This document shows positions 6,380 to 61,015 of a stretch of DNA of 64,000 nt, piece by piece; within the stretch, counting starts at the first letter, position 1; each line of letters opens with the position of its first letter. The DNA is taken from NCBI GenBank assembly GCA_036930585.1, contig GCA_036930585.1_3066.1. One strand, 5' to 3'. The notes beneath the pieces were generated by a model. It saw nothing but the letters and a program-made list of their open reading frames with translations. It was not told where the DNA came from and searched no databases. A program made the translations under genes and the position numbers. This DNA comes from a phage.

Positions 6380-6424
6380 TTAGTACCTTATATAAATTAT
6401 AATACATTTTATGAAGCTAAATAA

Positions 6425-6772
6425 TCAATACGGTTTAGCATCAAATTTTCTCTCAATTTCAGGTGTGAAATATAATTCTTTACCACGTTTGGAAAAGCGA
6501 CCAATAATATGATAATTATTCTCATCAAACATGATATTACCAATATCCATAGCTTTCAACCAAATATCGATATTTCTATCCAGCTTTATGTCAAAATTCC
6601 AATACGGAGAACTATTACCGAAAATACTGCAAGCGGATTCAGTGAAACAACTGCTATAAATCTTGTCTTTAGGAACTACTAATTGATAGACACCTTTAAT
6701 AAACTGAGGACCCTGCCACTTTGGCTGTTTCGTGTCTTTTTCTAATAGAATAGGGTAATAATTAAAATTCAT
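6425..6772 (-). CDS. Hypothetical protein (115 aa) inserted between frd and td
   Basis: Intact ORF filling a ~410-bp gap between frd stop and td start; no recognisable motif. Confidence 0.5.
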   Translation of the reverse strand: MNFNYYPILLEKDTKQPKWQGPQFIKGVYQLVVPKDKIYSSCFTESACSIFGNSSPYWNFDIKLDRNIDIWLKAMDIGNIMFDENNYHIIGRFSKRGKELYFTPEIERKFDAKPY

Positions 6773-6791
6773 ATTTCCGCCACGCGTTATT

Positions 6792-9722: not shown

Positions 9723-9800
9723 TTTTATTTCCTTTTTAATTTAATTAACAGTTGGTGCTATGACGATGTATGACCTCATAGCTGGTCAGTGAGATAATTA
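9723..9800 (-). promoter_or_regulatory. Gene 32 mRNA leader: autoregulatory operator (pseudoknot plus unstructured AAUUAAAUUAAAAAGGAAAUAAAAAUG)
   Basis: Sequence GCUAUGAGGUCAUACAUCGUCAUAGCACC... upstream of the gp32 ATG matches the known translational operator. Confidence 0.6.
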
Positions 9801-9805
9801 TAATC

Positions 9806-9813
9806 TATTTATA
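9806..9813 (-). promoter_or_regulatory. Late promoter TATAAATA upstream of gene 32
   Basis: Minus strand TATAAATA. Confidence 0.45.
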
Positions 9814-9821
9814 ATAAGCAA

Positions 9822-12087: not shown

Positions 12088-15000
12088 ATGGCCGAGATTA
12101 AAAGAAAGTTCAGAGCAGAAGACGGTCTGGACGCAGGTGGCAATAAAATAATCAACGTAGCTTTAGCTGATCGTACCGTAGGAACTGACGGTGTTAACGT
12201 TGATTACTTAATTCAAGAAAACACAGTTCAGCAATATGATCCAACTCGTGGATATTTAAAAGATTTTGTAATCATTTATAATAATCGTTTTTGGGCAGCA
12301 ACGAATAATATTCCAAAACCTGCTGGAAATTTTAATAGAATTCGTTGGAAAGCATTACGTACTGATGCCGTATATACAACCGTATCATCTGGACCATATC
12401 AATTAAAATCCGGAGAAGCAATTTCAGTAGATACATCAGTTGGCAATGACATTGAGTTTACTTTACCACCTTCTCCGCTTGATGGAGAAACCGTAATAAT
12501 TCAAGATATCGGTGGAAAACCTGGCATAAATCAGGTTAAAATAAATTCTTCAAATCAGAGTATTGTCAATTTTAGAGGTGAACAGGTACGTTCAGTTTTA
12601 ATGACTCATCCAAAGTCACAGATGGTATTCATTTTTAATAATCGTTTGTGGCAAATGTATATTGCTGATTATAGCAGAGAAGCTGCGATTGTTACTCCAT
12701 CGACTGCGTATCAAGCACAATCTAATGATTTTATCGTACGTAGATTTACTTCCGCTGCGCCGATTAATATTAAACTTCCGAGATTTGCTAATCACGGCGA
12801 TATTATTAATTTCGTCGATTTGGACAAATTAAATCCACTTTATCATACAATTGTCACGACATATGATGAAACAACTTCAGTGCAAGAAGTTGGAACTCAT
12901 TCCATTGAAGGCCGTACATCGATTGATGGTTTCTTGATGTATGATGATAATGAAAAATTGTGGAGATTGTTTGACGGGGATAGTAAAGCACGTTTACGTA
13001 TTATAACAACTAATTCAAATATTCGTCCAAATGAAGAAGTCATGGTATTTGGCGCGAATAATGGAACAACCCAAACAATTGAACTTCAGCTTCCAACTGA
13101 TGTTTCTGTTGGTGATACTGTTAAAATTTCCATGAATTACATGAGAAAAGGCCAAACAGTTAAAATCAAAGCTGCTGGTGAAGATAAAATTGCTTCTTCA
13201 GTTCAATTGCTGCAATTCCCAAAACGTTCAGAATATCCACCTGAAGCTGAATGGGTGACTGTTCAAGAATTAGTTTTTAACGGCAAAACTAATTATGTTC
13301 CAGTTTTGGAGCTTGCTTATATAGAAGATTCTGATGGAAAATACTGGGTTGTACAGCAAAACGTTCCAACAGTTGAAAGAGTTGATTCTTTAAATGATTC
13401 TACTAGAGCAAGATTAGGCGTAATAGCTTTAGCTACACAAGCTCAAGCAAATGCTGATTTAGAAAATTCTCCGCAAAAAGAATTAGCAATTACTCCAGAA
13501 ACATTAGCTAACCGTACTGCTACAGAAACTCGTAGAGGTATCGCAAGAATAGCAACTACTGCCCAAGTGAACCAGGATACTACATTCTCTTTTGCTGATG
13601 ATATTATCGTCACTCCTAAAAAGCTGAATGAAAGAACTGCCACAGAAACTCGTAGAGGCGTTGCTGAAATTGCGACGCAGCAAGAAACTAACGCAGGTAC
13701 TGATGATACTACAATCATCACTCCTAAAAAGCTTCAAGCTCGTCAAGGTTCTGAATCATTATCTGGTATTGTAACCTTTGTATCTACTGCAGGAGCTACT
13801 CCAGCTTCTAGTCGTGAATTAAATGGTACAAACGTTTATAATAAAAACACTAATAATTTAGTTGTTTCGCCTAAAGCTCTGGATCAGTATAAAGCTACTC
13901 CAACCCAACAAGGCGCAGTAATTTTAGCAGTTGAAAGTGAAGTAATTGCTGGACAAAGCCAAGAAGGATGGGCAAATGCGGTTGTAACGCCAGAAACGTT
14001 ACATAAAAAGACATCAACTGATGCAAGAATTGGTTTAATTGAAATTGCTACGCAAAGTGAAGTTAATACAGGAACTGATTATACTCGTGCAGTCACTCCT
14101 AAAACTTTAAATGACCGTAAAGCAACTGAAAGTTTAAGTGGTATAGCTGAAATTGCTACGCAAGTTGAATTCGACGCAGGCGTCGACGATACTCGTATCT
14201 CTACACCATTAAAAATTAAAACCAGATTTAACAGTACTGATCGTACTTCTGTTGTTGCTCTATCTGGATTAGTTGAATCAGGAACTCTCTGGGACCATTA
14301 TACCCTCAATATTCTTGAAGCAAATGAGACACAGCGTGGTACACTTCGTGTAGCTACACAAGTTGAAGCTGCTGCAGGAACATTGGATAATGTTCTAATA
14401 ACTCCTAAAAAGCTTTTAGGTACTAAATCTACTGAAGCACAGGAAGGTGTCATTAAAGTTGCAACTCAGTCTGAAACTGTAACTGGAACGTCAGCAAATA
14501 CTGCTGTATCTCCAAAAAATTTAAAATGGATTGTGCAGAGTGAACCTACTTGGGCAGCTACTACTCTGGTAAGAGGTTTTGTTAAAACTTCATCTGGTTC
14601 AATTACATTTGTCGGTAATGATACAGTCGGTTCTACCCAAGATTTAGAACTGTATGAGAAAAATAGCTATGCAGTATCACCATATGAATTAAATCGCGTA
14701 TTAGCAAATTATTTGCCATTAAAAGCAAAAGCTGTAGATAGTAATTTACTGGATGGTCTAGATTCATCTCAGTTCATTCGTAGGGATATTGCACAAACGG
14801 TTAATGGTTCACTAACCTTAACCCAACAAACGAATCTGAGTGCCCCTCTTGTATCATCTAGTACTGCTACGTTTGGTGGATCAGTTTCAGCAAATAGTAC
14901 ACTAACCATTTCTAATACTGATGGAACAGCAACTCGTCTGATTTTTGAGAAAGGACCTCAAACTGGAACAAACCCAGCTCAAACGATGACAGTCAGAGTG

Positions 15001-15960
15001 TGGGGAAATCAATTTAGCGGGGAATCAGACACAACACGTTCTACCGTATTTGAAGTTAGTGATGAAACGTCTAGTCATTTTTATTCTCAGCGTAATAAAG
15101 CTGGAAATATAACATTTAATATCAACGGTACAGTAACACCGATAAATGTTAATGCTTCAGGAACATTGAATGCAAATGGTGTAGCAACATTTGGTAGTTC
15201 AGTTACAGCCAATGGTGAATTCATTAGCAAGTCTGCAAATGCTTTCAGAGCAATAAACGGTGATTATGGATTCTTTATCAGGAATGATGGCGGCAGCACA
15301 TATTTTATGCTTACTGCATCGGGTGATCAGACTGGCGGATTTAATGGATTACGTCCTTTAGCTATTAATAATGCATCTGGTCAAGTAACTATTGGTGAAA
15401 GCTTAATCATTGCCAAAGGTGCTACTATAAATTCAGGTGGTTTAACTGTTAACTCGAGAATTCGTTCTCAGGGCACTAAAACCTCTGATTTATATACCCG
15501 TGCGCCAACATCTGATACAGTAGGATTCTGGTCAATCGATATTAATGATTCAGCCACTTATAACCAGTTCCCGGGTTATTTTAAAATGGTTGAAAAAACT
15601 AATGAAGTGACTGGACTTCCATACTTAGAACGTGGTGAAGAAGTTAAATCTCCTGGTACATTGACTCAGTTTGGTAACACACTTGATTCACTTTACCAAG
15701 ATTGGATTACTTATCCAACGACCCCAGAAGCACGTACCACTCGCTGGACACGTACATGGCAGAAAACCAAAAACTCTTGGTCAAGTTTTGTTCAGGTATT
15801 TGACGGAGGTAACCCTCCTCAACCTTCAGATATAGGAGCGATCCCATCTGATAATGGAATAATAGGTAATCTTACTATTCGCGATTTCTTGCGAATTGGT
15901 AATGTTCGCATTGTTCCTGACCCAGTGAATAAAACGGTTAAATTTGAATGGGTTGAATAA
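12088..15960 (+). CDS. 34: Long tail fiber proximal subunit gp34
   Basis: 1290-aa ORF MAEIKRKFRAEDGLDAGGNKIINVALADRTVGTDGVN...; internal repeats. Confidence 0.95.
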   Translation: MAEIKRKFRAEDGLDAGGNKIINVALADRTVGTDGVNVDYLIQENTVQQYDPTRGYLKDFVIIYNNRFWAATNNIPKPAGNFNRIRWKALRTDAVYTTVSSGPYQLKSGEAISVDTSVGNDIEFTLPPSPLDGETVIIQDIGGKPGINQVKINSSNQSIVNFRGEQVRSVLMTHPKSQMVFIFNNRLWQMYIADYSREAAIVTPSTAYQAQSNDFIVRRFTSAAPINIKLPRFANHGDIINFVDLDKLNPLYHTIVTTYDETTSVQEVGTHSIEGRTSIDGFLMYDDNEKLWRLFDGDSKARLRIITTNSNIRPNEEVMVFGANNGTTQTIELQLPTDVSVGDTVKISMNYMRKGQTVKIKAAGEDKIASSVQLLQFPKRSEYPPEAEWVTVQELVFNGKTNYVPVLELAYIEDSDGKYWVVQQNVPTVERVDSLNDSTRARLGVIALATQAQANADLENSPQKELAITPETLANRTATETRRGIARIATTAQVNQDTTFSFADDIIVTPKKLNERTATETRRGVAEIATQQETNAGTDDTTIITPKKLQARQGSESLSGIVTFVSTAGATPASSRELNGTNVYNKNTNNLVVSPKALDQYKATPTQQGAVILAVESEVIAGQSQEGWANAVVTPETLHKKTSTDARIGLIEIATQSEVNTGTDYTRAVTPKTLNDRKATESLSGIAEIATQVEFDAGVDDTRISTPLKIKTRFNSTDRTSVVALSGLVESGTLWDHYTLNILEANETQRGTLRVATQVEAAAGTLDNVLITPKKLLGTKSTEAQEGVIKVATQSETVTGTSANTAVSPKNLKWIVQSEPTWAATTLVRGFVKTSSGSITFVGNDTVGSTQDLELYEKNSYAVSPYELNRVLANYLPLKAKAVDSNLLDGLDSSQFIRRDIAQTVNGSLTLTQQTNLSAPLVSSSTATFGGSVSANSTLTISNTDGTATRLIFEKGPQTGTNPAQTMTVRVWGNQFSGESDTTRSTVFEVSDETSSHFYSQRNKAGNITFNINGTVTPINVNASGTLNANGVATFGSSVTANGEFISKSANAFRAINGDYGFFIRNDGGSTYFMLTASGDQTGGFNGLRPLAINNASGQVTIGESLIIAKGATINSGGLTVNSRIRSQGTKTSDLYTRAPTSDTVGFWSIDINDSATYNQFPGYFKMVEKTNEVTGLPYLERGEEVKSPGTLTQFGNTLDSLYQDWITYPTTPEARTTRWTRTWQKTKNSWSSFVQVFDGGNPPQPSDIGAIPSDNGIIGNLTIRDFLRIGNVRIVPDPVNKTVKFEWVE

Positions 15961-15968
15961 GAGGTATT

Positions 15969-17087
15969 ATGGAAAAATTTATGGCAAAGTTTGGACAAGG
16001 ATATGTCCAAACGCCATTTTTATCGGAAAGCAATTCAGTAAGATATAAAATAAGCATAGCGGGCTCTTGCCCGCTTTCTACTGCAGAAGGACCATATGTT
16101 AAATTTCAGGATAATCCTGTTGGAAGTCAAACATTTAGCGCAGGCCTTCATTTAAGAGTTTTTGACCCTTCTACGGGAGCATTAGTTGATAGTAAGTCAT
16201 ATGCTTTTTCTGCTTCAAACAATACAACATCTGCCGCTTTTGTCAGTTTCATGAATTCTTTGTCAAACAATAGACTTGTTGCTATATTAACTAGCGGAAA
16301 GGTTAATTTTCCTCCTGAAGTGGTATCTTGGTTAAGGGGAGCAGGAACTTCAGTTTTTCCATCAGATTCAGTATTGTCAAGATTTGACGTGTCATATGCT
16401 GCTTTTTATACTTCTTCTAAAAGAGCTATTGCATTAGAGCATGTTAAACTAAGTAATAGAAAAAGCACAGATGATTATCAAACTATTTTAGATGTTGTAT
16501 TTGATAGTTTAGAAGACGTCGGAGCTACCGGGTTTCCAAGAAGAACGTATGAAAGCGTTGAGCAATTTATGTCAGCGGTTGGTGGAACTAATAACGAAAT
16601 TGCACGTCTACCAACTTCATCCGCGATAAGTAAATTATCTGATTATAATTTAATTCCTGGTGATGTTCTTTATCTTAAAGCACAACTATATGCTGATGCT
16701 GATTTACTTGATCTTGGAACTACAAATATATCTATTCGTTTTTATGATGCATCAAATGGATATATTTCTTCGACCCAAGCTGAGTTTACTGGGCAAGCTG
16801 GGTCTTGGGAATTAAAAGAAGACTATGTAGTTGTTCCAGAAAACGCCGTAGGATTTACGATATATGCACAAAGAACTGCTCAAGCAGGTCAAGGCGGCAT
16901 GAGAAATTTAAGTTTTTCTGAAGTATCAAGAAATGGCGGCATTTCAAAACCTGCCGAATTTGGCGTCAACGGTATTCGCGTTAATTATGTCTGTGAATCG
17001 GCTTCACCTCCAGATATAATGGTACTTCCTACACAAGCCTCTTCTAAAACTGGCAAAGTGTTTGGACAGGAATTTAGAGAAGTTTAA
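15969..17087 (+). CDS. 35: Long tail fiber hinge connector gp35
   Basis: 372-aa ORF directly downstream of 34. Confidence 0.9.
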   Translation: MEKFMAKFGQGYVQTPFLSESNSVRYKISIAGSCPLSTAEGPYVKFQDNPVGSQTFSAGLHLRVFDPSTGALVDSKSYAFSASNNTTSAAFVSFMNSLSNNRLVAILTSGKVNFPPEVVSWLRGAGTSVFPSDSVLSRFDVSYAAFYTSSKRAIALEHVKLSNRKSTDDYQTILDVVFDSLEDVGATGFPRRTYESVEQFMSAVGGTNNEIARLPTSSAISKLSDYNLIPGDVLYLKAQLYADADLLDLGTTNISIRFYDASNGYISSTQAEFTGQAGSWELKEDYVVVPENAVGFTIYAQRTAQAGQGGMRNLSFSEVSRNGGISKPAEFGVNGIRVNYVCESASPPDIMVLPTQASSKTGKVFGQEFREV

Positions 17088-17092
17088 ACTGA

Positions 17093-17119
17093 GGGAGCCT
17101 TCGGGTTCCCTTTTTCTTT
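17093..17119 (+). terminator. Stem-loop (UUCG loop) plus U-run downstream of gene 35
   Basis: GGGAGCC-UUCG-GGUUCCC then UUUUUCUUU. Confidence 0.55.
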
Positions 17120-17126
17120 ATAAATA
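17119..17126 (+). promoter_or_regulatory. Late promoter TATAAATA for gene 36
   Basis: TATAAATA 24 nt upstream of gp36 ATG. Confidence 0.7.
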
Positions 17127-17149: not shown

Positions 17150-17800
17150 ATGGCTGATTTAAAAGTAGGTTCAACTGTGGGTGGATCTGTCATTTGGCAT
17201 CAAGGAAATTTTCCATTGAATTCAGCCGGTGACGATGTACTCTACAAATCATTTAAAATATATTCAGAATATAATAAACCGCAGGCAGCTGATAACGATT
17301 TCGTTTCTAAAGCTAATGGTGGTACTTACGCCGGTCCAATTACTATTAATTACGGGGTAAATAGTTATCTTCAATTAAGTAATAATGAAACCCCTATCCG
17401 AATTCGTTCTGATGGCGGCACTGGTAATACTCTTGTAGTTGGTGGCTCTTCTGGCGGTATTAGTTTTAGACCAGCAGGTAGTGAAATCACTACTGGACAA
17501 ATTACTATTACGCCAGAAGGTTTGACAACATTTACCAAAGCTGTAACGGCTCCATCTGTAACTGTTACATCTACTCCTTCCGCAGCATCTGATGTTACTC
17601 GCAAAGATTATGTTGATGGAGCAATAAATACTGTTACAGCAAATGCAAACTCTAGGGTATTACGCTCTGGAGACACTATGACAGGAAATTTAACTGCGCC
17701 AAACCTTTTTTCACAGAATCCTGCATCTCAACCTTCACACGTTCCACGATTTGACCAAATCGTAATGAAGGATTCTGTTCAAGATTTCGGCTATTATTAA
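17150..17800 (+). CDS. 36: Long tail fiber distal connector gp36
   Basis: 216-aa [32 protein letters not shown]... Confidence 0.9.
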
Positions 17801-17808
17801 GAGGACTT

Positions 17809-20754
17809 ATGGCTACTTTAAAACAAATACAATTTAAAAGAAGCAAAACTGCAGGTCAACGTCCTGCTGCTTCAGTATTAGCCGAAGGTGAATTGGCTAT
17901 AAACTTAAAAGATAAAACAATTTTCACAAAAGATGACTCAGGTAGTGTTATAGAATTAGGTTTAAAATATGGAGGAACTATAAATGGGTCTTTAGAGGTT
18001 ACAGAAAATATAACTGGAACTTTAATTGGAAATTCTAGCACAGCTACTAAATTGCAAACACCTAGGAAAATTAATGGTATATCTTTTGATGGGTCAAAGG
18101 ACATTACCTTAACTCCATCTGACATAAATGTCAATAGCACAACATTTATAAAAAATAATGGCGAATTACCTACTGATGCTAATTTAGATACGTATGGGCC
18201 CATTGAAGAATATCTTGGTGTTTGGTCGAAATCTACTTCAACAAATGCGCAACCAGCAAATAAATTCCCAGAAGAAAATGCCGTAGGTGTACTAGAAGTA
18301 TTTGTGGCCGGCCAATTTGCTGGCACTCAGCGTTATACTGTAAGATCTGGTAACGTCTATATTCGTTCCTTATCTGCTAAATGGAATGGCGTCGATGGTC
18401 CATGGGGTGTGTGGCGTAATGTTCAAGCGTCAACTCGTCCACTTTCACAAACGATTGACCTTGATAGCTTGGGAGAATTAGAACATTGTGGCTTATGGCG
18501 AAACAGTTCAAGCGCAATCGCATCATTTGATCGCCATTATCCAGAAGAAGGATCAGCCGCACAAGGATTTTTAGAAATATTTGAAGGTGGAAACTATTCT
18601 CGCACACAGAGATATACGACCAGATTTGGTGTTGTTTATACTCGTTGTCTCGCTGCTGCATGGGATGCTAGTGCACCTAAGTGGGAGGAATGGAAGCAGG
18701 TTGGTCATGGCACACCAGCGACTTTCTATGATGGAGATCTGAATGATTTTAAAACTCCCGGGTTATATAATATTTTAGGCACTGATGCCGTTATTAACTG
18801 TCCTACCGGTGAAGGTTTGCCGACTGTTATTGTTGGTTTGCTGGAAGTTAAACAGCGTGCTTCTGGTGGTGCTATTTTCCAAAAATTTACTACTGCCGGA
18901 ACAGGCGCAACTACTCGCGGACGTATTTTTGAGCGTGCATATACTGATGGTGCGTGGGGTGCATGGAACGAAGTATATACATCTTATTCTCTTCCAATTA
19001 CTTTGGGTATGGGTGGTATTAAAGCTCAATTAGCGGAGTTAGATTGGCAAACCTTTGATTTTGTTCCTGGTAGTATGTTTAGCGTTCCTTTGAACAAAAT
19101 AAAGAACATGCCAGCAAATATGGATTGGGGGACGATTGACGGAAACCTGGTTATGTTTTCCGTTGGTCCTAGTGAACACACTAGCACAGGGCGTACTGTT
19201 CAGGTTTGGCGCGGTACTGTATCCCAGACAAACTACCGTTATTTTGTCGTTCGTGTGTTCGGTAATTCTGGAAATAGAACTTGCACAGTCCGCCGTGTTG
19301 TTCTTGAAGACGGATCACATACTTGGACTGCTCAACAAAACTTTAGGGGATTGCTTAATATCACTGCTGCTGTTAATCTTGGTGCTAATCAGAAAATTTC
19401 ACTTGCTCCAGGAGCATATATTCAAGCCCCTGCTAGCGGTTCTGGTTCTAATACTTACGCAAATCAGAATACTACCATTGCGCCATTATATCAGGCTATT
19501 GACGATTCAAATAAAAACCAGTTTGCGCCAATTGTTAAACAGAAAAATACTGTAAGTAATATCACCTTTGCCACTGGTATGGCTATAGATACATCCGAAT
19601 ATAAGATCATTGCTCAGGGTGATTTATCCGCTGATGGAACAGCAGATGGGTTAAAACAGTGGACTTTCATGCCGTCAGGTTATTTTAAATCTCCAGGGCG
19701 TGTATATGTCGGTGATGCGTTCCTTAATACAGATGGTAATATTGCCGGTTCAATCTGGAAGAAATATAACAATGCGACAAATTTAGATGCTGCCTTGAAT
19801 ACTCGCGTAGGTAAAGGCGGTGATACGATGACAGGTCGGTTAACAATCAATGCACCTAATGATTCTATTGTATTATCAACGACTGCTAGTAATTCTTTGC
19901 ATATTCGTGGTGACATAGACGGGACTGGTAACTGGTATATTGGTAAAGGTGGTGCTGATAATGGATTAGCGTTCTATAGTTATGCTACTAATGCTGGTGT
20001 ATACATTACAAACGCAGGAGATATCTCGCTAAGTCCAAAGGGTGCCGAAACGGCTCAGGTCAATAACGTTCGATTATATATTCATGGTGAACGTTGGACC
20101 GCTAGTCAACCAGGTGATTGGGGCAACCAATGGCGAGTAGAAGCACCAATATTCGTTGATCATGGTTATGTTTCACAGGATTGTTATTATCCTATTCTTA
20201 AAGCAAGAAGCGTTATAGCCAATCAAGGATATAGCACCGCTGTTGACTTTGGTATGCGTCGTATTCCATCACAGTGGGGGCAAGCAATCATTCGTGTCGG
20301 ATCCACGGAGGCTTCTCCTGATGCTGGACACCCACAAGCTGTGTTTGAATTCCATCATGATGGATTCTTTTATACACCAGGAAATGGTAGCTTTAGCGAT
20401 GTGTATATTCGTTCTGACTCCCGTCTCAAGATTAATAAAGAAGAATTAGAATATGGAGCGGTCGAAAAAGTTTGCCGACTGAAAGTTTATATTTACGATA
20501 AAGTTAAGTCTATTAAAGACCGTAGTGTTATTAAACGTGAAGTTGGTATTATTGCTCAGGACCTTGAAAAGGAATTACCAGAAGCTGTATCTAAAGTTGA
20601 AGTTGATGGATCTGATGTTCTGACAATTTCTAACTCTGCTGTGAATGCTCTTTTAATTAAGGCTATTCAGGAAATGAGTGAAGAAATTAAAGAATTGAAA
20701 ACGCCTCTCTTTACTAAAATTGCTCGCAAAATTAGTAAATATTTTAAATTCTAA
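17809..20754 (+). CDS. 37: Long tail fiber distal subunit gp37, T2-like type with C-terminal intramolecular chaperone domain
   Basis: 981 aa; N-terminus [13 protein letters not shown]... conserved; diverges from T4 gp37 after ~50 aa; no His-box tip. Confidence 0.9.
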
Positions 20755-20760
20755 CAACAA

Positions 20761-20775
20761 GGGGGAAATGCCCCC
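20761..20775 (+). terminator. Short GC hairpin between genes 37 and 38 (weak terminator/attenuator)
   Basis: GGGGG-AAAUG-CCCCC followed by UUU only. Confidence 0.3.
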
Positions 20776-20790
20776 TTTGGAGTATAAATT

Positions 20791-21591
20791 ATGGCAGTAG
20801 TTGGTGTTCCTGGTTGGATTGGAAGTTCAGCCGCAAATGAAACAGGACAGCGCTGGATGAGTCAAGCGGCTGGTCAATTAAGATTGGGTGTTCCTTGCTG
20901 GATGAGTCAATTTGCAGGTCGCTCACGAGAAATTATTCACACGCTTGGAGCAGACCATAACTTCAATGGTCAATGGTTCCGAGATAGATGTTTTGAGGCA
21001 GGTAGTGCACCTATAGTGTTTAATATTACCGGAAATTTGGTATCATATTCTAGAGACGTTCCTTTATTCTTCATGTATGGAGATACACCTAATGAATATG
21101 TTCAGTTGAATATTGGTGGCGGCGTCCATATGTGGGGTAGAGGTGGACAAGGTGGATGGACCCATTCCGGCGGAAATGGTAATGGTCAACAAGGTGGTCA
21201 TTGTATTCAAAATGACATCGGTGGACGATTAAGAATTAATAACGGTGGAGTAATTTGTGGTGGAGGTGGAGGTGGAGGTGGTATCGCTTATCGTCCTCAC
21301 TCTGGTGCAAATTGGCAAGATATTGGTGGTGGTGGAGGAAGACCATTTGGCCCAGGAGGAGGCGGAGGTTATTCCGGCGGCGCAGCTTCTTATGATGGCC
21401 CAGGAGGTGGTTACCAATACGGAAATGCTCACTCTGGCCAGGGTGGTGGTGCCGGAGGAAATGGACAAAATGCCTGGTCTGATGGTGGTAAAGTTCTAAA
21501 AGTTGGAGCTGGTGGCGCTGCCGGATATGCTGTTATAGGATCAGCTCCAACATGGCAAAATGTTGGAGTAATATATGGTCCAAGAGTATAA
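20791..21591 (+). CDS. 38: Receptor-recognising adhesin gp38 (T2-type, glycine-rich motifs)
   Basis: 266 aa; [44 protein letters not shown]... with poly-Gly blocks. Confidence 0.85.
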
Positions 21592-21622
21592 TTTTGAATA
21601 AATACCCCTAAAAGGAGGGTCT

Positions 21623-22279
21623 ATGGCAGCACCTAGAATATCATTTTCGCCCTCTGATATTCTATTTGGTGTTCTAGATCGCTTGTTCAAAGATAACGCT
21701 ACCGGGAAAGTTCTTGCTTCCCGGGTAGCTGTCGTAATTCTTTTATTTATGATGGCGATTGTTTGGTATAGGGGAGATAGTTTCTTTGAGTACTATAAGC
21801 AATCAAAGTATGAAACATACAGTGAAATTATTGAAAAGGAAAGAAATGCACGCTTTGAATCTGTCGCCCTGGAACAACTCCAGATAGTTCATATATCATC
21901 TGAGGCAGACTTTAGTGCGGTGTATTCTTTCCGCCCTAAAAACTTAAACTATTTTGTTGATATTATAGCATATGAAGGAAAATTACCTTCAACAATAAGC
22001 GAAAAATCACTTGGAGGATATCCTGTTGATAAAACTATGGATGAATATGCAGTTCATTTAAATGGACATCATTATTATTCCAACTCAAAATTTGCTTTTT
22101 TACCAACCAAAAAGCCTACTCCTGAAATAAATTACATGTACAGTTGTCCATATTTCAATTTGGATAATATCTATGCTGGAACAATAACCATGTACTGGTA
22201 TAGAAATGATCATATAAGTAATGACCGCCTTGAATCAATATGTGCTCAGGCGGCCAGAATATTAGGAAGGGCTAAATAA
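21623..22279 (+). CDS. t: Holin T
   Basis: 218-aa ORF with one N-terminal TM segment and large periplasmic domain; strong AAAGGAGG SD. Confidence 0.9.
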   Translation: MAAPRISFSPSDILFGVLDRLFKDNATGKVLASRVAVVILLFMMAIVWYRGDSFFEYYKQSKYETYSEIIEKERNARFESVALEQLQIVHISSEADFSAVYSFRPKNLNYFVDIIAYEGKLPSTISEKSLGGYPVDKTMDEYAVHLNGHHYYSNSKFAFLPTKKPTPEINYMYSCPYFNLDNIYAGTITMYWYRNDHISNDRLESICAQAARILGRAK

Positions 22280-36161: not shown

Positions 36162-36429
36162 ATTTAAAACGAATAGTCGAATCCTTGAAGAATAGTCCAG
36201 AACATACTGTTCCTTCTACTTTCTGCCCAGTAGGTCCAATAGCACGAAATCCAGTACGCTGGAAATCATTTTCAGAGCAACCGAACCAATTATATCCAGT
36301 GATTTCAATATTAGTAAAACCACTTGAAGACAAAACTTTGGTTGCATTATCAGCATCAGTACATCCTATTAAAGACACTGCTAATACTAATGCTGCGATA
36401 GAACGATTAATATATTTCATAATTTTCAC
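36160..36429 (-). CDS. Putative lipoprotein (89 aa)
   Basis: Signal peptide with lipobox LIGC. Confidence 0.5.
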   Translation of the reverse strand: MKIMKYINRSIAALVLAVSLIGCTDADNATKVLSSSGFTNIEITGYNWFGCSENDFQRTGFRAIGPTGQKVEGTVCSGLFFKDSTIRFK

Positions 36430-36797
36430 TTAAATTTAATGGCTTGAAGAAGACTAATAACTCTCAAGCGGCTTCTTTCATCTTTAACTGTAAAGGAAAG
36501 AGGGTCACCAGATTTCATAGTGATAGTGCATTCAAAATCAAAATCTTCGGGAACTTCTTCGAATAGATCAAATTCTTCATCATATATTAGAACATTACTC
36601 TGAAAACTGTGAAGAATTTTTCCGTCATTTCCAGATGCTGTACTAATCATTGTAACGTTATTACCTTTCATATCTTCAACGATAAATTCGCTTGTAGATA
36701 TTACATTACTAATAGAACCATTCCTATAAATAGCAGAAAATAGATATTTCTTTTCTTCACCTTCGCGAATGCGATATTTCTTACCGATTTTAAACAT
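36426..36797 (-). CDS. Hypothetical protein (123 aa)
   Basis: ORF track. Confidence 0.5.
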   Translation of the reverse strand: MFKIGKKYRIREGEEKKYLFSAIYRNGSISNVISTSEFIVEDMKGNNVTMISTASGNDGKILHSFQSNVLIYDEEFDLFEEVPEDFDFECTITMKSGDPLSFTVKDERSRLRVISLLQAIKFK

Positions 36798-38347: not shown

Positions 38348-38893
38348 TTAATTCAAAATAGCTACCACCGCACTACGAGGTACTACACTAAAATCTCCTG
38401 CATGGACAACGTTCAGAAGCTCAACACCATCTTCAATCCACTGGTCTGTTACCCAACCACAGATAGGATTATCAAAAGGACGACGGATAGACACAGCAGC
38501 ACACAACAGGTCTGTAGGGTCTTGTTCTTCAACTTCTTGGAACAGGATGAACTCATCTTCATAAACCAGGTTTTTCTTTATTTTGTTATTATCTAACCGG
38601 CGACCGTGGATGACGTAAGATTTGTCAAACCACTCACTTTTGGCAAATTCTTCAACAATAAATTCGCCTTCGCCAAAAACATCAGTCAGAGTTTTATGAC
38701 CAGAAATCAAGGCATTAGTTTTAATTTTAGGTTCAACCAGTTTGTAGGTTTTGCCGATTTCAATAGCGGTAGTCATAGTAGGTTCCTTAATTTCCAGTGG
38801 TTTAACAGGGCATACATAAGTACTTACAACGTCAAAATCAATCAGTTTAGCTGCCGGATTCGGTGTGTATTCAGGATTATAATTAAATTTCAT
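38348..38893 (-). CDS. MotB paralog (181 aa)
   Basis: Shares C-terminal motif ..(Y/W)(I/V)TDQW(V/I)EDGV(K/E)L(Y/L)N(A/V)V.. with motB. Confidence 0.55.
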   Translation of the reverse strand: MKFNYNPEYTPNPAAKLIDFDVVSTYVCPVKPLEIKEPTMTTAIEIGKTYKLVEPKIKTNALISGHKTLTDVFGEGEFIVEEFAKSEWFDKSYVIHGRRLDNNKIKKNLVYEDEFILFQEVEEQDPTDLLCAAVSIRRPFDNPICGWVTDQWIEDGVELLNVVHAGDFSVVPRSAVVAILN

Positions 38894-38895
38894 AA

Positions 38896-39393
38896 TTATC
38901 TCATTTCAATAAAATCTACAAGTTCAGCATGGGATTTACGGAACATTACTTGATGCCCGCCAATGATAACTTGGTCATCTGGTACTTCGTATACAGCAAG
39001 ATAAAATCCTTTCGAAGCTAATTCTTCACGCTCTTCTCGTGTGAACCATCTCATCATATCATATTCGCTAGCGAAAGCAAAATGATAAAGAGCTATAAAC
39101 CATCCTGGAATATGATATTCTACTCCAACATAATCTTTCTTGAACTTAGTATTAATTACTATATTAGCGTTTTTAACTAATAGTTTATCTTCGTGTGGTA
39201 AAGGAATTCTTTTATTATCGCTATGATGCATAAAATTAGGTCTGTCATAACCTACGTGTAATAGCCACTCTTCGCTCCATGAATCTATTATACTCCTGTA
39301 CGGCGTTATTTGAACACAAAGATTTCGACGTATTGTTATAGCATCTTCACAATCAAGAATACTAAACGATGATTCAACACGATAAATTTTCAT
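38896..39393 (-). CDS. Hypothetical protein (165 aa)
   Basis: Start moved to ATG 39393 with GAGGATAATAAA SD; track extension overlaps promoter. Confidence 0.5.
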   Translation of the reverse strand: MKIYRVESSFSILDCEDAITIRRNLCVQITPYRSIIDSWSEEWLLHVGYDRPNFMHHSDNKRIPLPHEDKLLVKNANIVINTKFKKDYVGVEYHIPGWFIALYHFAFASEYDMMRWFTREEREELASKGFYLAVYEVPDDQVIIGGHQVMFRKSHAELVDFIEMR

Positions 39394-46808: not shown

Positions 46809-46876
46809 GTAATTCTCCTTTTATTTAAATTACATGATTATTTATAATAAATTCTCGCGGCTTTTAAGACGAGCTG

Positions 46877-47392
46877 TTAATAACCTCGGTCTTGACGTTC
46901 AAAATTATGTTTGTTTTTCAAATAATAAAGTTTAAAGATTTCTTCCGCATTCATTCCAAGGCCAGCAAACATATTTAATACGAAATGAAATATATCCACA
47001 AGCTCAAATTTAATTTCGAGCTGATCTTCTGGGGACATTTCATCAATGCGTTTTTCTTGCGCTTCAATATAACGTGCTTTCCATTTTTTCCAAACTGCCG
47101 ATGCATCTTTTTCACCACGTGACATTTCACCAAGAGAAGTCAGAAGTTCGCGGAATTCATCGTCAATGCAGTCTTTTTGTTCACGCATCCAAGAAACAAC
47201 ATCACCGGCAGTTTCTAATTTATCTGGATGATAGCAGTATTCGCGGTCATTTGCTAAACGAATCTGCAGAGATTTCTGCATGTCAAGCATTACCTGCAGC
47301 GGGTCTTTTTCATCACCGAGAATATCCCAATATTCATTTTGAGCTTTATCAGCGCCTTCGATCAGTTGACTACATTCGTTAAAGTAAGCCAT
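46877..47392 (-). CDS. 56: dCTPase/dUTPase gp56
   Basis: 171-aa product from ATG 47392 (MAYFNECSQ...). Confidence 0.8.
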   Translation of the reverse strand: MAYFNECSQLIEGADKAQNEYWDILGDEKDPLQVMLDMQKSLQIRLANDREYCYHPDKLETAGDVVSWMREQKDCIDDEFRELLTSLGEMSRGEKDASAVWKKWKARYIEAQEKRIDEMSPEDQLEIKFELVDIFHFVLNMFAGLGMNAEEIFKLYYLKNKHNFERQDRGY

Positions 47393-49784: not shown

Positions 49785-50096
49785 TGGCGCAGTAATATTT
49801 TCTGCATCATTTAGCAAATCATTAATTTCATCAGATAGCATAACACACGTACCTTTATTTCCTGTAATTGTTACTGCACAATTACGAACGTTTTCTTTAT
49901 CAAATTTTAGGTTAATATTTTCATAGTGAAAATCCTTTAATGCCGAATATATCTTTAAAATGAAATTGTCTTTTACTACAATAAACCCAACCTCACTATT
50001 AAAACGCGGTTCATGGAAACTGTAATAAACCTTTTCATCTATAAAATCGTATGAAATTTTTTCCATTTTTAAATATGAAAATTCAGAACTATACAT
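49740..50096 (-). CDS. 61.2-like single-domain paralog (118 aa)
   Basis: Homologous to C-terminal half of 61.2 (…EVGFIVVKDNFILKIY…) and identical last 13 aa SIDDQIFNAFMNRG. Confidence 0.6.
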   Translation of the reverse strand: MYSSEFSYLKMEKISYDFIDEKVYYSFHEPRFNSEVGFIVVKDNFILKIYSALKDFHYENINLKFDKENVRNCAVTITGNKGTCVMLSDEINDLLNDAENITAPSIDDQIFNAFMNRG

Positions 50097-54543: not shown

Positions 54544-55209
54544 TTATAGTAGTGTTCTTGTTCCACGAAATACTTCGAGCATTCTTGCATAAGATTTATT
54601 TGGAAATCCAGCTTCAATTGCTAATTTTTTAAGCTTAATAGCACCGGGTTTTCCAGAGTTTTCCCATATTTCTTTAATCTTTTCAATGTTATCCCACATT
54701 ATTGGGTCACGTTTATGTGATGGTTTATTTCTATTATAACCATATGGATTATTAAGCAAAGCTTCTTTTCGTTTTGCTTTAGTTTCTTCTGACTGCTTTT
54801 TGCCTAGCTGGGCTTTCCGGCAAACATCACTAAATCCAAGATGTTTTGGTTTTCCTTTTTGAGCTTTTGAAATTTTTTCTTTGGTTTCTGATGAAACTCT
54901 ATAACCAATTCTTCTACCACCCTCTCCACCAATTTTTAAATTATAAGTCATAGGATCATTTACCACATCTATTGTTACTAATTCTCTTTCAGCATCACGG
55001 GCTGATTTAAAATCTTTATAAAACCCAAGAATGCTTAAATTAAAATTTTTCTTACCATACTTTTTCTTGGCTTGTGCTAATAAAGTTCCTGATCCCATAT
55101 AACCATCATTTAAATCATCGGTTGAATGAGTTCCATAGTAAATTTTATTATTAACTAAATTAGTTATAACATAAGTATAATTATATTTCTTTTCTTTATG
55201 TCTTTTCAT
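54544..55209 (-). CDS. segA: GIY-YIG homing endonuclease SegA-like
   Basis: Start at ATG 55209 (MKRHKEKKYNYTYVITNLVNNKIYYGTH...); GIY-YIG motif. Confidence 0.75.
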   Translation of the reverse strand: MKRHKEKKYNYTYVITNLVNNKIYYGTHSTDDLNDGYMGSGTLLAQAKKKYGKKNFNLSILGFYKDFKSARDAERELVTIDVVNDPMTYNLKIGGEGGRRIGYRVSSETKEKISKAQKGKPKHLGFSDVCRKAQLGKKQSEETKAKRKEALLNNPYGYNRNKPSHKRDPIMWDNIEKIKEIWENSGKPGAIKLKKLAIEAGFPNKSYARMLEVFRGTRTLL

Positions 55210-55213
55210 GTCA

Positions 55214-56062
55214 TTAATCAACTGCTATTGGATGAATAGCATTAAACTTATGAAATGCTTCTGATTTTTCTTTACGCGAAACACACATGCGAAGAACCTT
55301 TAATGGTTCGTCTTCTTCACCCAACGATTTTCGTTTTTCAATATTAGAAGTTTTCCAACGAGCTTGCTCTGGAAACTCTCTATTGATTTGCTCAAGCGCT
55401 CTATTATGTTTAGAATTACTACGAATTGAACTACACCCGCCAGGAGCTTGTGCTTTTCCAGATACAACCAGATATTTGAACAAGGCCAAATGCGGATAAC
55501 CTTGATTAATTAAATTGAGAAATGCATACATATCTTCGCACAAATCAATTTTTCCATACCCAATTTGTTCTGTCGTAAGTTTTCCGAGGTCATACCATGT
55601 ATTCGTGAATCCATATGAATTTTCACGATAATTACCCCAAGATGAAGTAATTTTAAAAATAGGTAGGCGAGCATGACCGTGATAATACCCGCAATCCATG
55701 GCATCTTCGACGTATTGAATCAATTCATAGAACTGTTCATGAGTCAATTGATTGACTTTATCTACACAGCGACGATCATCTTTCTTTCGCATTGAACTCA
55801 TACGAATAGTAGTATCATCGTCAATCATCCAGATTCGTTGACCTGCATACATATCAGTAATCGCTTTACGAGTACCAGCAATTCCATTAACATCATCAGG
55901 AATAGTTATAATTTTAGCTCTAGAGCCATAAGCGTCATAATAAGCTTTTTCTTCGTGTTCACGTACTACAATATGTGGTTCATAATCAGTCGGAAACATA
56001 TCAAGGGCAGAAACTGCCCCTACGCGTTGATAACTTGGAATTACGAATTGAATCATTTCCAT
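55214..56062 (-). CDS. Glycosyltransferase (GT-A fold, DxD motif) in the beta-gt position; probably T2/T6-type HMC-glucosyl transferase
   Basis: 282-aa ORF with IWMIDDDTTI; unlike the 351-aa T4 beta-gt. Confidence 0.55.
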   Translation of the reverse strand: MEMIQFVIPSYQRVGAVSALDMFPTDYEPHIVVREHEEKAYYDAYGSRAKIITIPDDVNGIAGTRKAITDMYAGQRIWMIDDDTTIRMSSMRKKDDRRCVDKVNQLTHEQFYELIQYVEDAMDCGYYHGHARLPIFKITSSWGNYRENSYGFTNTWYDLGKLTTEQIGYGKIDLCEDMYAFLNLINQGYPHLALFKYLVVSGKAQAPGGCSSIRSNSKHNRALEQINREFPEQARWKTSNIEKRKSLGEEDEPLKVLRMCVSRKEKSEAFHKFNAIHPIAVD

Positions 56063-57586: not shown

Positions 57587-57596
57587 AATAATTTCC

Positions 57597-57845
57597 TCAA
57601 ATGCAAGTAGTAATTACTCCAGTAGTGCTTATGCAGGTATTACCCATTTGCACACCTAAAGATCCATTTGTATTCACATGAAGATTATCATCAATTTTAA
57701 CTGATATTTTACCATTAGTGTGAATAACGGTGCTAGATTCAATCACAGGTTGAGTATCATTTTCAACACTAACAAATGGAACTGCTGCTAATGCAACTAA
57801 ACAAACTGCTAAGCATCCCATAACAATTTTCATTTCATTCTCCAA
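57597..57845 (-). CDS. Small secreted/membrane protein (82 aa)
   Basis: N-terminal signal-like hydrophobic segment. Confidence 0.45.
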   Translation of the reverse strand: MENEMKIVMGCLAVCLVALAAVPFVSVENDTQPVIESSTVIHTNGKISVKIDDNLHVNTNGSLGVQMGNTCISTTGVITTCI

Positions 57846-60792: not shown

Positions 60793-61014
60793 TTAAATTA
60801 GTACTATTTGTCGGGTGAAAATTGTCAATCCATCTGCATTAATTGACTTAACGACCGCGGTAAAGTGTTTTTGTTCTGGGTGAACTAATTTTTGAAATTC
60901 TACCTGAAATTTTAGTTGAAGGTTTTCTGGTAAATCGAAAAGTGTTTCTGTTGCAGAAAGATTATATTTTTCTTTAAGAGACGCCATGTATTCTTGCGGA
61001 GTTATAGCAGTCAT
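60793..61014 (-). CDS. Hypothetical protein (74 aa)
   Basis: Start moved to ATG 61014 (TAATATG junction with regA). Confidence 0.4.
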   Translation of the reverse strand: MTAITPQEYMASLKEKYNLSATETLFDLPENLQLKFQVEFQKLVHPEQKHFTAVVKSINADGLTIFTRQIVLI

Positions 61015-61015
61015 A

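Follow-up and report, generated by a model that had tools for sequence, protein, structure and literature searches.

An adhesin-type distal tail-fiber module pairing a T6/PST-like gp37 with an RB32-like gp38: evidence from a phage genome region

In phage T4, gp38 is a Tfa-like assembly chaperone, and the tip of gp37 is an HxH iron-binding needle that is itself receptor-binding. In phage T2, gp38 is instead an adhesin, carried on a gp37 whose C-terminal chaperone can be cleaved off. The gp38 proteins of S16 (6F45) and PP01 (9V85) share one plan, namely a three-tryptophan attachment domain, a beta-helix, and a glycine-rich specificity domain, and both phages use OmpC as their receptor. In S16, the three N-terminal tryptophans of gp38 dock gp37, and the docking mechanism has been described (PMC6851490). 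RB32 needs OmpA and is LPS-sensitive, and this specificity moves with its hypervariable segment (HVS) block (Trojet 2011). The phages CM8, PYps14T, and RB14 use Tsx (Trojet 2011; bioRxiv 10.64898/2026.04.02.716166). When CM8 is engineered to carry the gp38 of EV240 it switches to OmpA, and a single HVS substitution can be enough to switch the receptor, as in RB51 versus RB68 (Q206L) (bioRxiv 10.64898/2026.04.02.716166). Knowledge of adhesin gp38, of gp37 with a chaperone tail, and of recombination at conserved motifs dates from the 1980s–90s, with later structural and genetic confirmation.

Here we analyze the distal long-tail-fiber locus in a stretch of phage DNA of 64,000 nucleotides (contig GCA_036930585.1_3066.1), the whole of which we call the window. 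Its distal module is very probably the standard adhesin type of T-even phages (T2/T6/S16 class), made up of a T6/PST-like gp37 and an RB32-like gp38. Gene order and sizes agree with this class: gp34, gp35, and gp36 are encoded upstream of gp37 and gp38, holin t lies downstream, and the open reading frames of gp37 and gp38 are found where the original prediction had placed them (Table 1). That prediction, of a gp38 of the adhesin type and a gp37 with a chaperone tail rather than the Tfa-like gp38 and His-box gp37 tip of T4, is confirmed as to class. Its term "T2-type" is apt as a class label and misleading as the name of an allele, given identities to T2 of 32% for gp37 and 53% for gp38; in an alignment against T2, T6, and T4, the nearest of the three is T6, at 83% for gp37 and 76% for gp38. 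The module class is well documented and the observation, although correct, is ordinary: the adhesin-type gp38 and the recombining tip have already been published (Trojet 2011; Dunne 2018), the exact gp37 and gp38 proteins are already present in NCBI, and the module brings no conceptual gain.

Table 1. Features of the distal long-tail-fiber locus, in coordinates of the window.
Feature	Position	Strand	Basis or remark
T4-type late promoter consensus TATAAATA, upstream of gene 36	17119..17126	+	position
gp36, distal hinge connector, 216 aa, mosaic	17150..17800	+	protein identity to T4, T2, T6
Gene 36 variable middle cassette, codons about 61–141	17332..17570	+	without DNA homology to T4/T2
gp37, long-tail-fiber distal subunit, 981 aa, T6/PST/CM8 type	17809..20754	+	protein identity, phrog_1699
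Conserved gp37 N-terminus, aa 1–52	17809..17963	+	common to T4, T2, T6
Three tandem ~90-aa repeats in gp37, aa ~120–400	18166..19008	+	repeat alignment
gp37_trimer region (Pfam), borderline, aa 692–736	19882..20016	+	shaft element shared with T4 gp37
gp37 C-terminal intramolecular chaperone domain, aa 869–981	20413..20751	+	Peptidase_S74, SDSRLK at start
Small GC hairpin GGGGG-AAATG-CCCCC then TTT, between g37 and g38	20761..20775	+	read from sequence
gp38, monomeric tail-fiber tip adhesin, 266 aa	20791..21591	+	PF05268
gp38 N-terminal attachment domain, aa 1–42	20791..20916	+	Gp38_N PF21721, three Trp
Recombination junction within gene 38, codons ~58–80	20964..21030	+	informative-site triplet test
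gp38 specificity region, aa ~109–250, RB32 (OmpA/LPS) type	21115..21540	+	Gly motifs and hypervariable segments alternate
Right boundary of variable block and holin t	21598..22279	+	T4 DNA homology resumes at 21598

The identity of gp38 is carried by several comparisons. The Pfam GP38 adhesin profile matches it over profile positions 1–218 of 218 (E=1.5e-67, 228 bits against a cutoff of 25), and phrog_2056 matches it with E=2.2e-111. T4 gp38, which is unrelated to this protein, found no match in blastp against the window's gp38 or in tblastn against the whole window; it is the adhesin profile that matches instead, in keeping with what had been predicted. Homology to the S16 adhesin extends over the full length (6F45_D, residues 5–263, E=4e-49) and homology to the PP01 adhesin begins at residue 38 (PDB 9V85, 38–266, E=3e-71), and on the basis of this sequence homology gp38 would adopt a polyglycine-II sandwich fold. 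The domain plan is that of S16 and PP01, from which the window's protein differs in its hypervariable loops and in the expected receptor. Gp38_N is recognized at the N-terminus (E=1.5e-19, 70 bits), and the three tryptophans through which S16 gp38 docks gp37 have aligned counterparts in W9, W22, and W37. Glycine makes up 27% of the protein and 41% of residues 110–250; the glycine blocks are conserved across seven phages, with hypervariable segments in between, and residues 157–164 form the run GGGGGGGG. The gp38 proteins of RB32, vB_EcoM-fFiEco06, and vB_EcoM_FT, likewise of 266 aa, are 97.4%, 98.1%, and 98% identical to that of the window and agree with it in their set of hypervariable segments and in the position of their genes; they differ from it by 5–7 substitutions, some of which lie in hypervariable segments. 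The gene itself lies directly between g37, on its 5′ side, and holin t, on its 3′ side.

The neighboring gp37 departs from T4 abruptly. Residues 1–52, presumed to be the segment that joins gp36, are identical to T4 at 45 of 52 positions, whereas residues 53–90 agree at 4 of 38. At the DNA level, homology to T4 ends at nt 17963, in codon 52, which places the left boundary of the variable block at 17963/17964. The predicted breakpoint near residue 50 was therefore accurate, as was the statement that gp37 differs from T4 beyond its first ~50 residues. The T4 His-box tip is absent, as had also been claimed: there are 0 HxH motifs against 8 in T4 gp37, the T4 needle tip (aa 785–1026) has no tblastn match anywhere in the window, and a PDB search with gp37 did not match the T4 gp37 structure. 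Over the whole protein, gp37 is 29% identical to T4 and 94% to FT, and phrog_1699 matches it with E=2.9e-205. The Pfam gp37_trimer region is borderline, scoring 18.5 bits on the whole of gp37 (under the cutoff) and 22.5 bits against a cutoff of 21.7 on a fragment. The chaperone-like ending that had been proposed is evident from a Peptidase_S74 match to residues 869–927 (E=6e-10, 39.7 bits against a cutoff of 22) and from SDSRLK at residue 869. This domain aligns to the equivalent part of S16 gp37 (PDB 6F45_A), which has the same chaperone tail and no detectable similarity outside the C-terminal region, and the SDxRxK motif occurs at the equivalent position in T6, T2, RB32, FT, and PYps14T. By analogy with these proteins, gp37 is predicted to undergo autocleavage after trimerization.

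T6, PST, RB14, CM8, and PYps14T have a T6-type distal half-fiber and share with the window the three tandem repeats of gp37, its chaperone tail, and a gp36 that is 97% identical, and the gp37 of PYps14T is also equal in length, at 981 aa. The DNA of gp37 is ~96% identical to that of CM8, PYps14T, and RB14, and T6 gp37 departs from the window's over nt 19346–19859. All five phages carry Tsx-type gp38 specificity regions, unlike the window. RB32 gp37, in contrast to the window's, has 1027 aa and diverges over nt 19346–20393, and T2 gp37 has 1341 aa.

The genes upstream of gp37 are T4-like to differing degrees. The original prediction that gp34, gp35, gp36, and the start of gp37 resemble T4 holds for gp34 (92% identical), gp35 (95%), and residues 1–52 of gp37, and does not hold for gp36, which is 70% identical to both T4 and T2. 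Conservation with T4 and T2 covers 60 aa at the N-terminus of gp36 and ~75 aa at its C-terminus, and its middle is a T6/Ox2-type cassette that is 93–100% identical to T6, FT, and PYps14T. Even gp34 departs from T4 in two short patches, where T6-type phages match it instead. What T4 shares with the window is thus the first 52 aa of gp37, both ends of gp36, g34, g35, t, and the positions of the late promoters. A backbone that is specifically T4-like, as had been supposed, is rejected: with the module set aside, T4 and T6 differ little in their identity to the window (95.5% and 94.8%), and a T6-type glucosyltransferase replaces the T4 beta-gt in the window. All of the relatives that are closest over the region as a whole have adhesin modules.

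Relative to T4, the block that has been replaced spans 17964–21597, in addition to the middle of gp36 (17332–17570). Homology to T4 DNA resumes just past the g38 stop codon, and holin t (21623–22279; Phage_holin_T, E=1.5e-116) is 98% identical to T4 t. Recombination did take place, on a fine scale, and its sharpest junction lies inside gene 38. In a triplet analysis, 105 of 105 informative sites to the left of this junction favor PYps14T and 175 of 183 to the right favor RB32 (Fisher p ~1e-69); the analysis relies on alignment through highly divergent HVS DNA, and the junction itself is in well-aligned sequence. The identity profile agrees with a PYps14T/CM8-like left side and an RB32-like right side: 21100–21400 is 98–100% identical to RB32 and is unaligned or 57–79% identical with respect to T6 and PYps14T. 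Judged from these sequences, the junction would join a fiber from phages with a Tsx-type gp38 to an OmpA-type specificity domain.

RB32, a phage with an experimentally mapped receptor, has a gp38 specificity domain 97–98% identical to that of the window. The most likely receptor is therefore OmpA, with dependence on the LPS core. There are 7 residues that differ between the two gp38 proteins, several of them in hypervariable segments, and because single HVS substitutions can switch the receptor, OmpA is probable rather than certain. The practical use of the analysis lies in this receptor prediction, of OmpA plus LPS core and not OmpC, Tsx, or FadL, and in the location of the exchangeable specificity cassette, which helps the choice of phages for cocktails or engineering.

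Other readings of the module are much less probable. That it is literally the module of phage T2, recently swapped into a T4 backbone and bringing FadL/OmpF specificity, appears extremely unlikely. Although gp38 and its T2 counterpart fall in one Pfam family and the chaperone tail of gp37 is 43% identical to T2 over aa 845–967, homology to T2 DNA is lost over 17958–21511, almost the same block as is lost relative to T4, and this missing DNA alignment refutes a T2 allele of g37/g38 at the sequence level. The hypervariable segments are unlike those of T2 throughout, the identities of gp37 and gp38 to T2 fall far short of those to T6 and FT, and the backbone outside the module is equally T6-like and T4-like. 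A module that is of the T6/PST type throughout and recognizes Tsx would fit the identity of gp36 and gp37 to T6 and the close match of gp37 DNA to the Tsx-using phages CM8, PYps14T, and RB14. However, receptor choice maps to the gp38 specificity region (Trojet 2011; bioRxiv 10.64898/2026.04.02.716166), and the region 21030–21510 is 98–100% identical to RB32 but unaligned or 57–79% identical to T6 and PYps14T, so we consider recognition of Tsx improbable. The probability is close to nil that the glycine-rich reading frame is a compositional artefact or a nonfunctional remnant whose composition marks foreign or noncoding DNA. Composition at 21000–21499 is indeed anomalous (GC 47% and GC skew 0.35, compared with a backbone of ~35% GC), but the frame is intact and is matched end to end by a curated family, and the identical NCBI protein is one of 132 that cluster together at 90% identity. 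The high GC and skew at 21000–21500 arise because of the glycine content of gp38 aa 110–250, encoded by GGN codons; a foreign origin of this GC-rich block is accordingly rejected.

With an adhesin module of RB32-like specificity as the preferred reading, the direction of change relative to T4 can be considered. Adhesin gp38 is found in 805 phage records from several genera and T4-type gp38 in 297, of which ~207 are at least 60% identical to that of T4; previous studies also report that the adhesin form predominates (Trojet 2011; Dunne/Leiman PMC6851490). The adhesin gp38 is the majority state, and T4 is the outlier. Moreover, T4 gp38 matches the tail-fiber assembly proteins of lambda and other lambdoid phages at 26–30% identity, and therefore T4 may be the lineage that changed. 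We moderately favor the hypothesis that Tequatrovirus inherited the adhesin arrangement vertically from its ancestor and that T4 replaced its own tip, acquiring a gp38 like lambda Tfa and a gp37 C-terminus with a His-box, although prevalence does not establish ancestry and the fine-scale mosaicism indicates frequent recombination at the locus in either case. This hypothesis bears on the direction of the swap and not on the function of the module. Of the recombinational swap that was originally predicted, the recombination stands, as seen in the middle cassette of gp36, the patches in gp37, and the junction in gene 38; a swap away from the T4 state is not implied because the adhesin form is the majority. 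The analysis thereby corrects a T4-centered bias, as the T4 tail-fiber tip is the exception among its relatives.

We propose that gp37 would trimerize with the aid of its own C-terminal intramolecular chaperone, which would then be cut off at the serine of SDSRLK, as homologs suggest. One gp38 monomer would dock on the exposed tip of the gp37 trimer through W9, W22, and W37, and its glycine-rich hypervariable C-terminal domain would offer loops to an outer-membrane protein, OmpA being the likeliest. The patchwork of the module was very probably built by homologous recombination at conserved segments.

The three repeats in gp37 may be pyocin-knob-like domains. They have no match in Pfam (E up to 10), NCBIfam, or PDB sequences; NCBI names their homologs "pyocin knob domain-containing", and some of these carry PF12571 and PF03406. 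An AF2 model of the repeats is of moderate confidence (pLDDT 69.5), and a Foldseek search with it relates R1 pyocin fiber 6CL5 to the repeats with E=1e-5 at a TM-score of only 0.2–0.3. The repeats are 54–70% identical to tail fibers of P2-like E. coli prophages. It is conceivable, if rather doubtful, that they form a second binding module, a glycan/LPS lectin passed between T-even phages, which are lytic, and temperate prophages. Were this so, the lectin could explain the LPS dependence beside OmpA in RB32-like phages, the host-range determinant would be two-site, and the window would correspond, in nature, to the receptor-switch chimera engineered from CM8 and EV240.

Two further elements may bear on expression of the module. 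The consensus TATAAATA has five exact matches in the window, a count not above chance there, and only the two positions directly upstream of g34 (12046) and g36 (17119) are informative. We take these to be late promoters from their position and from established knowledge of T4, and the one at 17119 probably drives a g36-g37-g38-t late transcription unit. Between g37 and g38, the small GC hairpin could act as a weak attenuator or as an RNA-stability element.

The window comes from the genome of a Tequatrovirus (T-even) phage, and the coordinates originally given for its distal tail-fibre module, gp37 and gp38 (17809-21591), are exact. Matches to the T4-type late promoter consensus lie immediately 5' of g34 and of g36. 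Between g37 and g38, the 36 nt of spacer contain a GC hairpin at 20761-20775 (GGGGG-AAATG-CCCCC, then TTT), which may act as a weak attenuator or in RNA stability.

Genes of the tail-fibre region, with global protein identities (%) to the window's proteins; FT is phage vB_EcoM_FT
Product	Position	Strand	Remarks	T4	T2	T6	FT
gp34	12088-15960	+	Gp34 domains (Pfam)	92		97	97
gp35	15969-17087	+		95	96	98	98
gp36	17150-17800	+	Phage_T4_gp36 (Pfam)	70	70	97	98
gp37	17809-20754	+	981 aa; Peptidase_S74 at its end (Pfam)	29	32	83	94
gp38	20791-21591	+	266 aa; GP38 adhesin and Gp38_N (Pfam)	no alignment	53	76	98
holin t	21623-22279	+	Phage_holin_T (Pfam)	98	97	97	99

On sequence grounds, the window's gp38 is a glycine-rich adhesin, as the original prediction held, and not an assembly chaperone of the T4 type. 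The adhesin profile covers it end to end (228 bits), and it aligns with the adhesins of PP01 (PDB 9V85; residues 38-266, E=3e-71) and S16 (PDB 6F45_D; residues 5-263, E=4e-49). Its N-terminal W9, W22, and W37 align with the three tryptophans by which, in S16, a single gp38 monomer is anchored in three pockets on the gp37 trimer (Dunne/Leiman, PMC6851490). Queries with T4 gp38 and with the T4 needle tip, the receptor-binding end of T4 gp37, had no tblastn match anywhere in the window. The predicted lack of the His-box tip is likewise borne out, as the HxH motif is absent from the window's gp37 whereas T4 gp37 carries eight copies, of which the needle contains seven. The C-terminal 113 residues of gp37 are the anticipated intramolecular-chaperone domain, which starts with SDSRLK at residue 869 and aligns with S16 gp37 (PDB 6F45); an SDSRLK-type motif stands at the equivalent position in gp37 of T6, T2, RB32, FT, and PYps14T. 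Within gp38, residues 110-250 are 41% glycine; here, variable segments alternate with glycine blocks that are conserved ([26 protein letters not shown]). Foreign DNA was rejected as the cause of the high GC content and GC skew of this stretch, since GGN codons account for both.

The module had been called T2-type, which is right for the class of gp38 but not for the allele. The possibility that it is T2's own allele was rejected, given that T2 DNA homology is absent over nearly the same block as that of T4 and that gp37 and gp38 are distant from their T2 counterparts (table). In gp36 and gp37 the type is that of T6/PST/RB14/CM8/PYps14T, with ~96% DNA identity to several of these. DNA homology to T4 runs up to nt 17331, is absent over 17332-17570, returns over 17571-17963, and is absent over 17964-21597, restarting 6 nt past the g38 stop codon. 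The expected breakpoint near gp37 residue 50 is thus confirmed: 45/52 of residues 1-52 are identical to T4, and only 4/38 of those that follow. The T4-like character ascribed to the preceding genes holds for gp34 and gp35 but not for gp36, whose middle third (17332-17570, codons ~61-141) is a T6/Ox2-type cassette between conserved ends, with DNA homology to neither T4 nor T2. The proximal half-fibre is also mosaic, because two patches of g34 (12200-12650 and 14900-15200) have 64-87% DNA identity to T4 and 91-100% to T6-type phages.

Further patches, and a sharp junction, lie within the module. The stretch 19346-19859 is common to FT and PYps14T and is not shared with T6 or RB32, whereas 19900-20100 is T6-like, with FT and PYps14T just 57-86% identical. 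In a triplet analysis of the window, PYps14T, and RB32 over 20394-21650, all 105 informative sites up to nt 20964 favour PYps14T and 175 of the 183 from nt 21030 on favour RB32 (Fisher p ~1e-69), which places a junction at codons ~58-80 of gene 38, in conserved sequence that separates the attachment domain from the specificity domain. Such fine-scale mosaicism at conserved motifs is known (Tetart and Krisch; Trojet et al. 2011).

Beyond this junction, the gp38 specificity region over 21100-21400 is 98-100% identical to RB32, while T6 and PYps14T either do not align there or reach just 57-79%; over the whole protein, identity is 97.4% to RB32 and 98.1% to both vB_EcoM-fFiEco06 and FT. RB32 requires OmpA and is sensitive to the composition of the LPS; moving its block of hypervariable segments (HVS) into a Tsx phage transferred RB32 specificity (Trojet et al. 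2011). Similarly, CM8, which uses Tsx, gained OmpA specificity with the gp38 of EV240 (bioRxiv 10.64898/2026.04.02.716166). Given the RB32-like specificity region and these transfers, the best prediction for the receptor is OmpA with LPS-core dependence. It stays a prediction because single HVS substitutions can switch the receptor (bioRxiv 10.64898/2026.04.02.716166) and seven residues differ between this gp38 and that of RB32.

Residues ~120-400 of gp37 (18166-19008) comprise three tandem repeats of ~90 aa that have no sequence match in Pfam, NCBIfam, or PDB. At NCBI the homologues, with 54-70% identity, go by the name 'pyocin knob domain-containing', and phrog_4618 ('tail collar fiber protein') matches residues 112-325. 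In Foldseek, an AF2 model of the repeats (pLDDT 69.5) matches receptor-binding proteins of staphylococcal phages and the R1 pyocin fibre, with E ~1e-5 but low TM-scores. A knob-like fold is plausible at most; a role in binding is speculative. Some of the homologues come from P2-like prophages of E. coli, as tail fibres with PF12571 and PF03406, which suggests domain exchange between lytic T-even and temperate phages.

The original prediction further posited a recombinational swap of the receptor-binding module on an otherwise T4-like backbone. Outside 17332-21597, 94.2% of the window's length aligns with T4, at 95.5% identity, and nearly as much with T6 (93.4%, at 94.8%); by these comparisons the backbone is generic for Tequatrovirus. 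No other stretch of the window that lacks homology to T4 is as large as the 3.6-kb block (17964-21597), and the mosaicism and the gene 38 junction do support recombination. A departure of this phage from the T4 state is not shown, because the adhesin form is the common one, also according to the T4 RefSeq annotation, Trojet 2011, and Dunne/Leiman (PMC6851490). By tblastn, adhesin gp38 occurs in 805 phage records and T4-type gp38 in 297, ~207 of them with 60% or more identity to T4 gp38 and the remainder including lambdoid Tfa proteins; adhesin modules are present in every one of the nearest overall relatives, among them 215Ecol030PP, AV121, and PST. The derived lineage may be that of T4.

The finding is correct and ordinary, as the adhesin class, its structure, assembly logic, receptor mapping, and recombinational plasticity are already published. 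Exact copies of gp36 and gp38 are in NCBI (EMK4141056, EMK4141058; a 166-kb contig of an E. coli assembly), the Logan collection contains an identical gp37, and the 90%-identity cluster of gp38 has 132 members. The adjacent gp37 entry of that assembly, EMK4141057, has just 581 aa and is probably a truncated gene call.

Elsewhere in the window, short stretches lack T4 DNA homology (6383-6786, 36423-36794, 38564-38907, 49785-50093, 57587-57819, 60797-61015), some of them T6 homology as well. Of the homing-endonuclease genes of T4, mobE, the I-TevI ORF, segG, and segF are apparently missing (alignment gaps at ~2325-2381, ~5730, 9785-9821, and 46846-46877). The gene 60/mobA/39 region is T4-like, and a segA-like GIY-YIG gene lies at 54544-55221. 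On the minus strand, 55214-56062 encodes a glycosyltransferase of 282 aa (Pfam TAGT) that shares 98.6% identity with a T6 ORF; it stands in the position of the T4 beta-glucosyltransferase and is unrelated to that enzyme. It is a second non-T4, T2/T6-type module and presumably affects the DNA glucosylation pattern.
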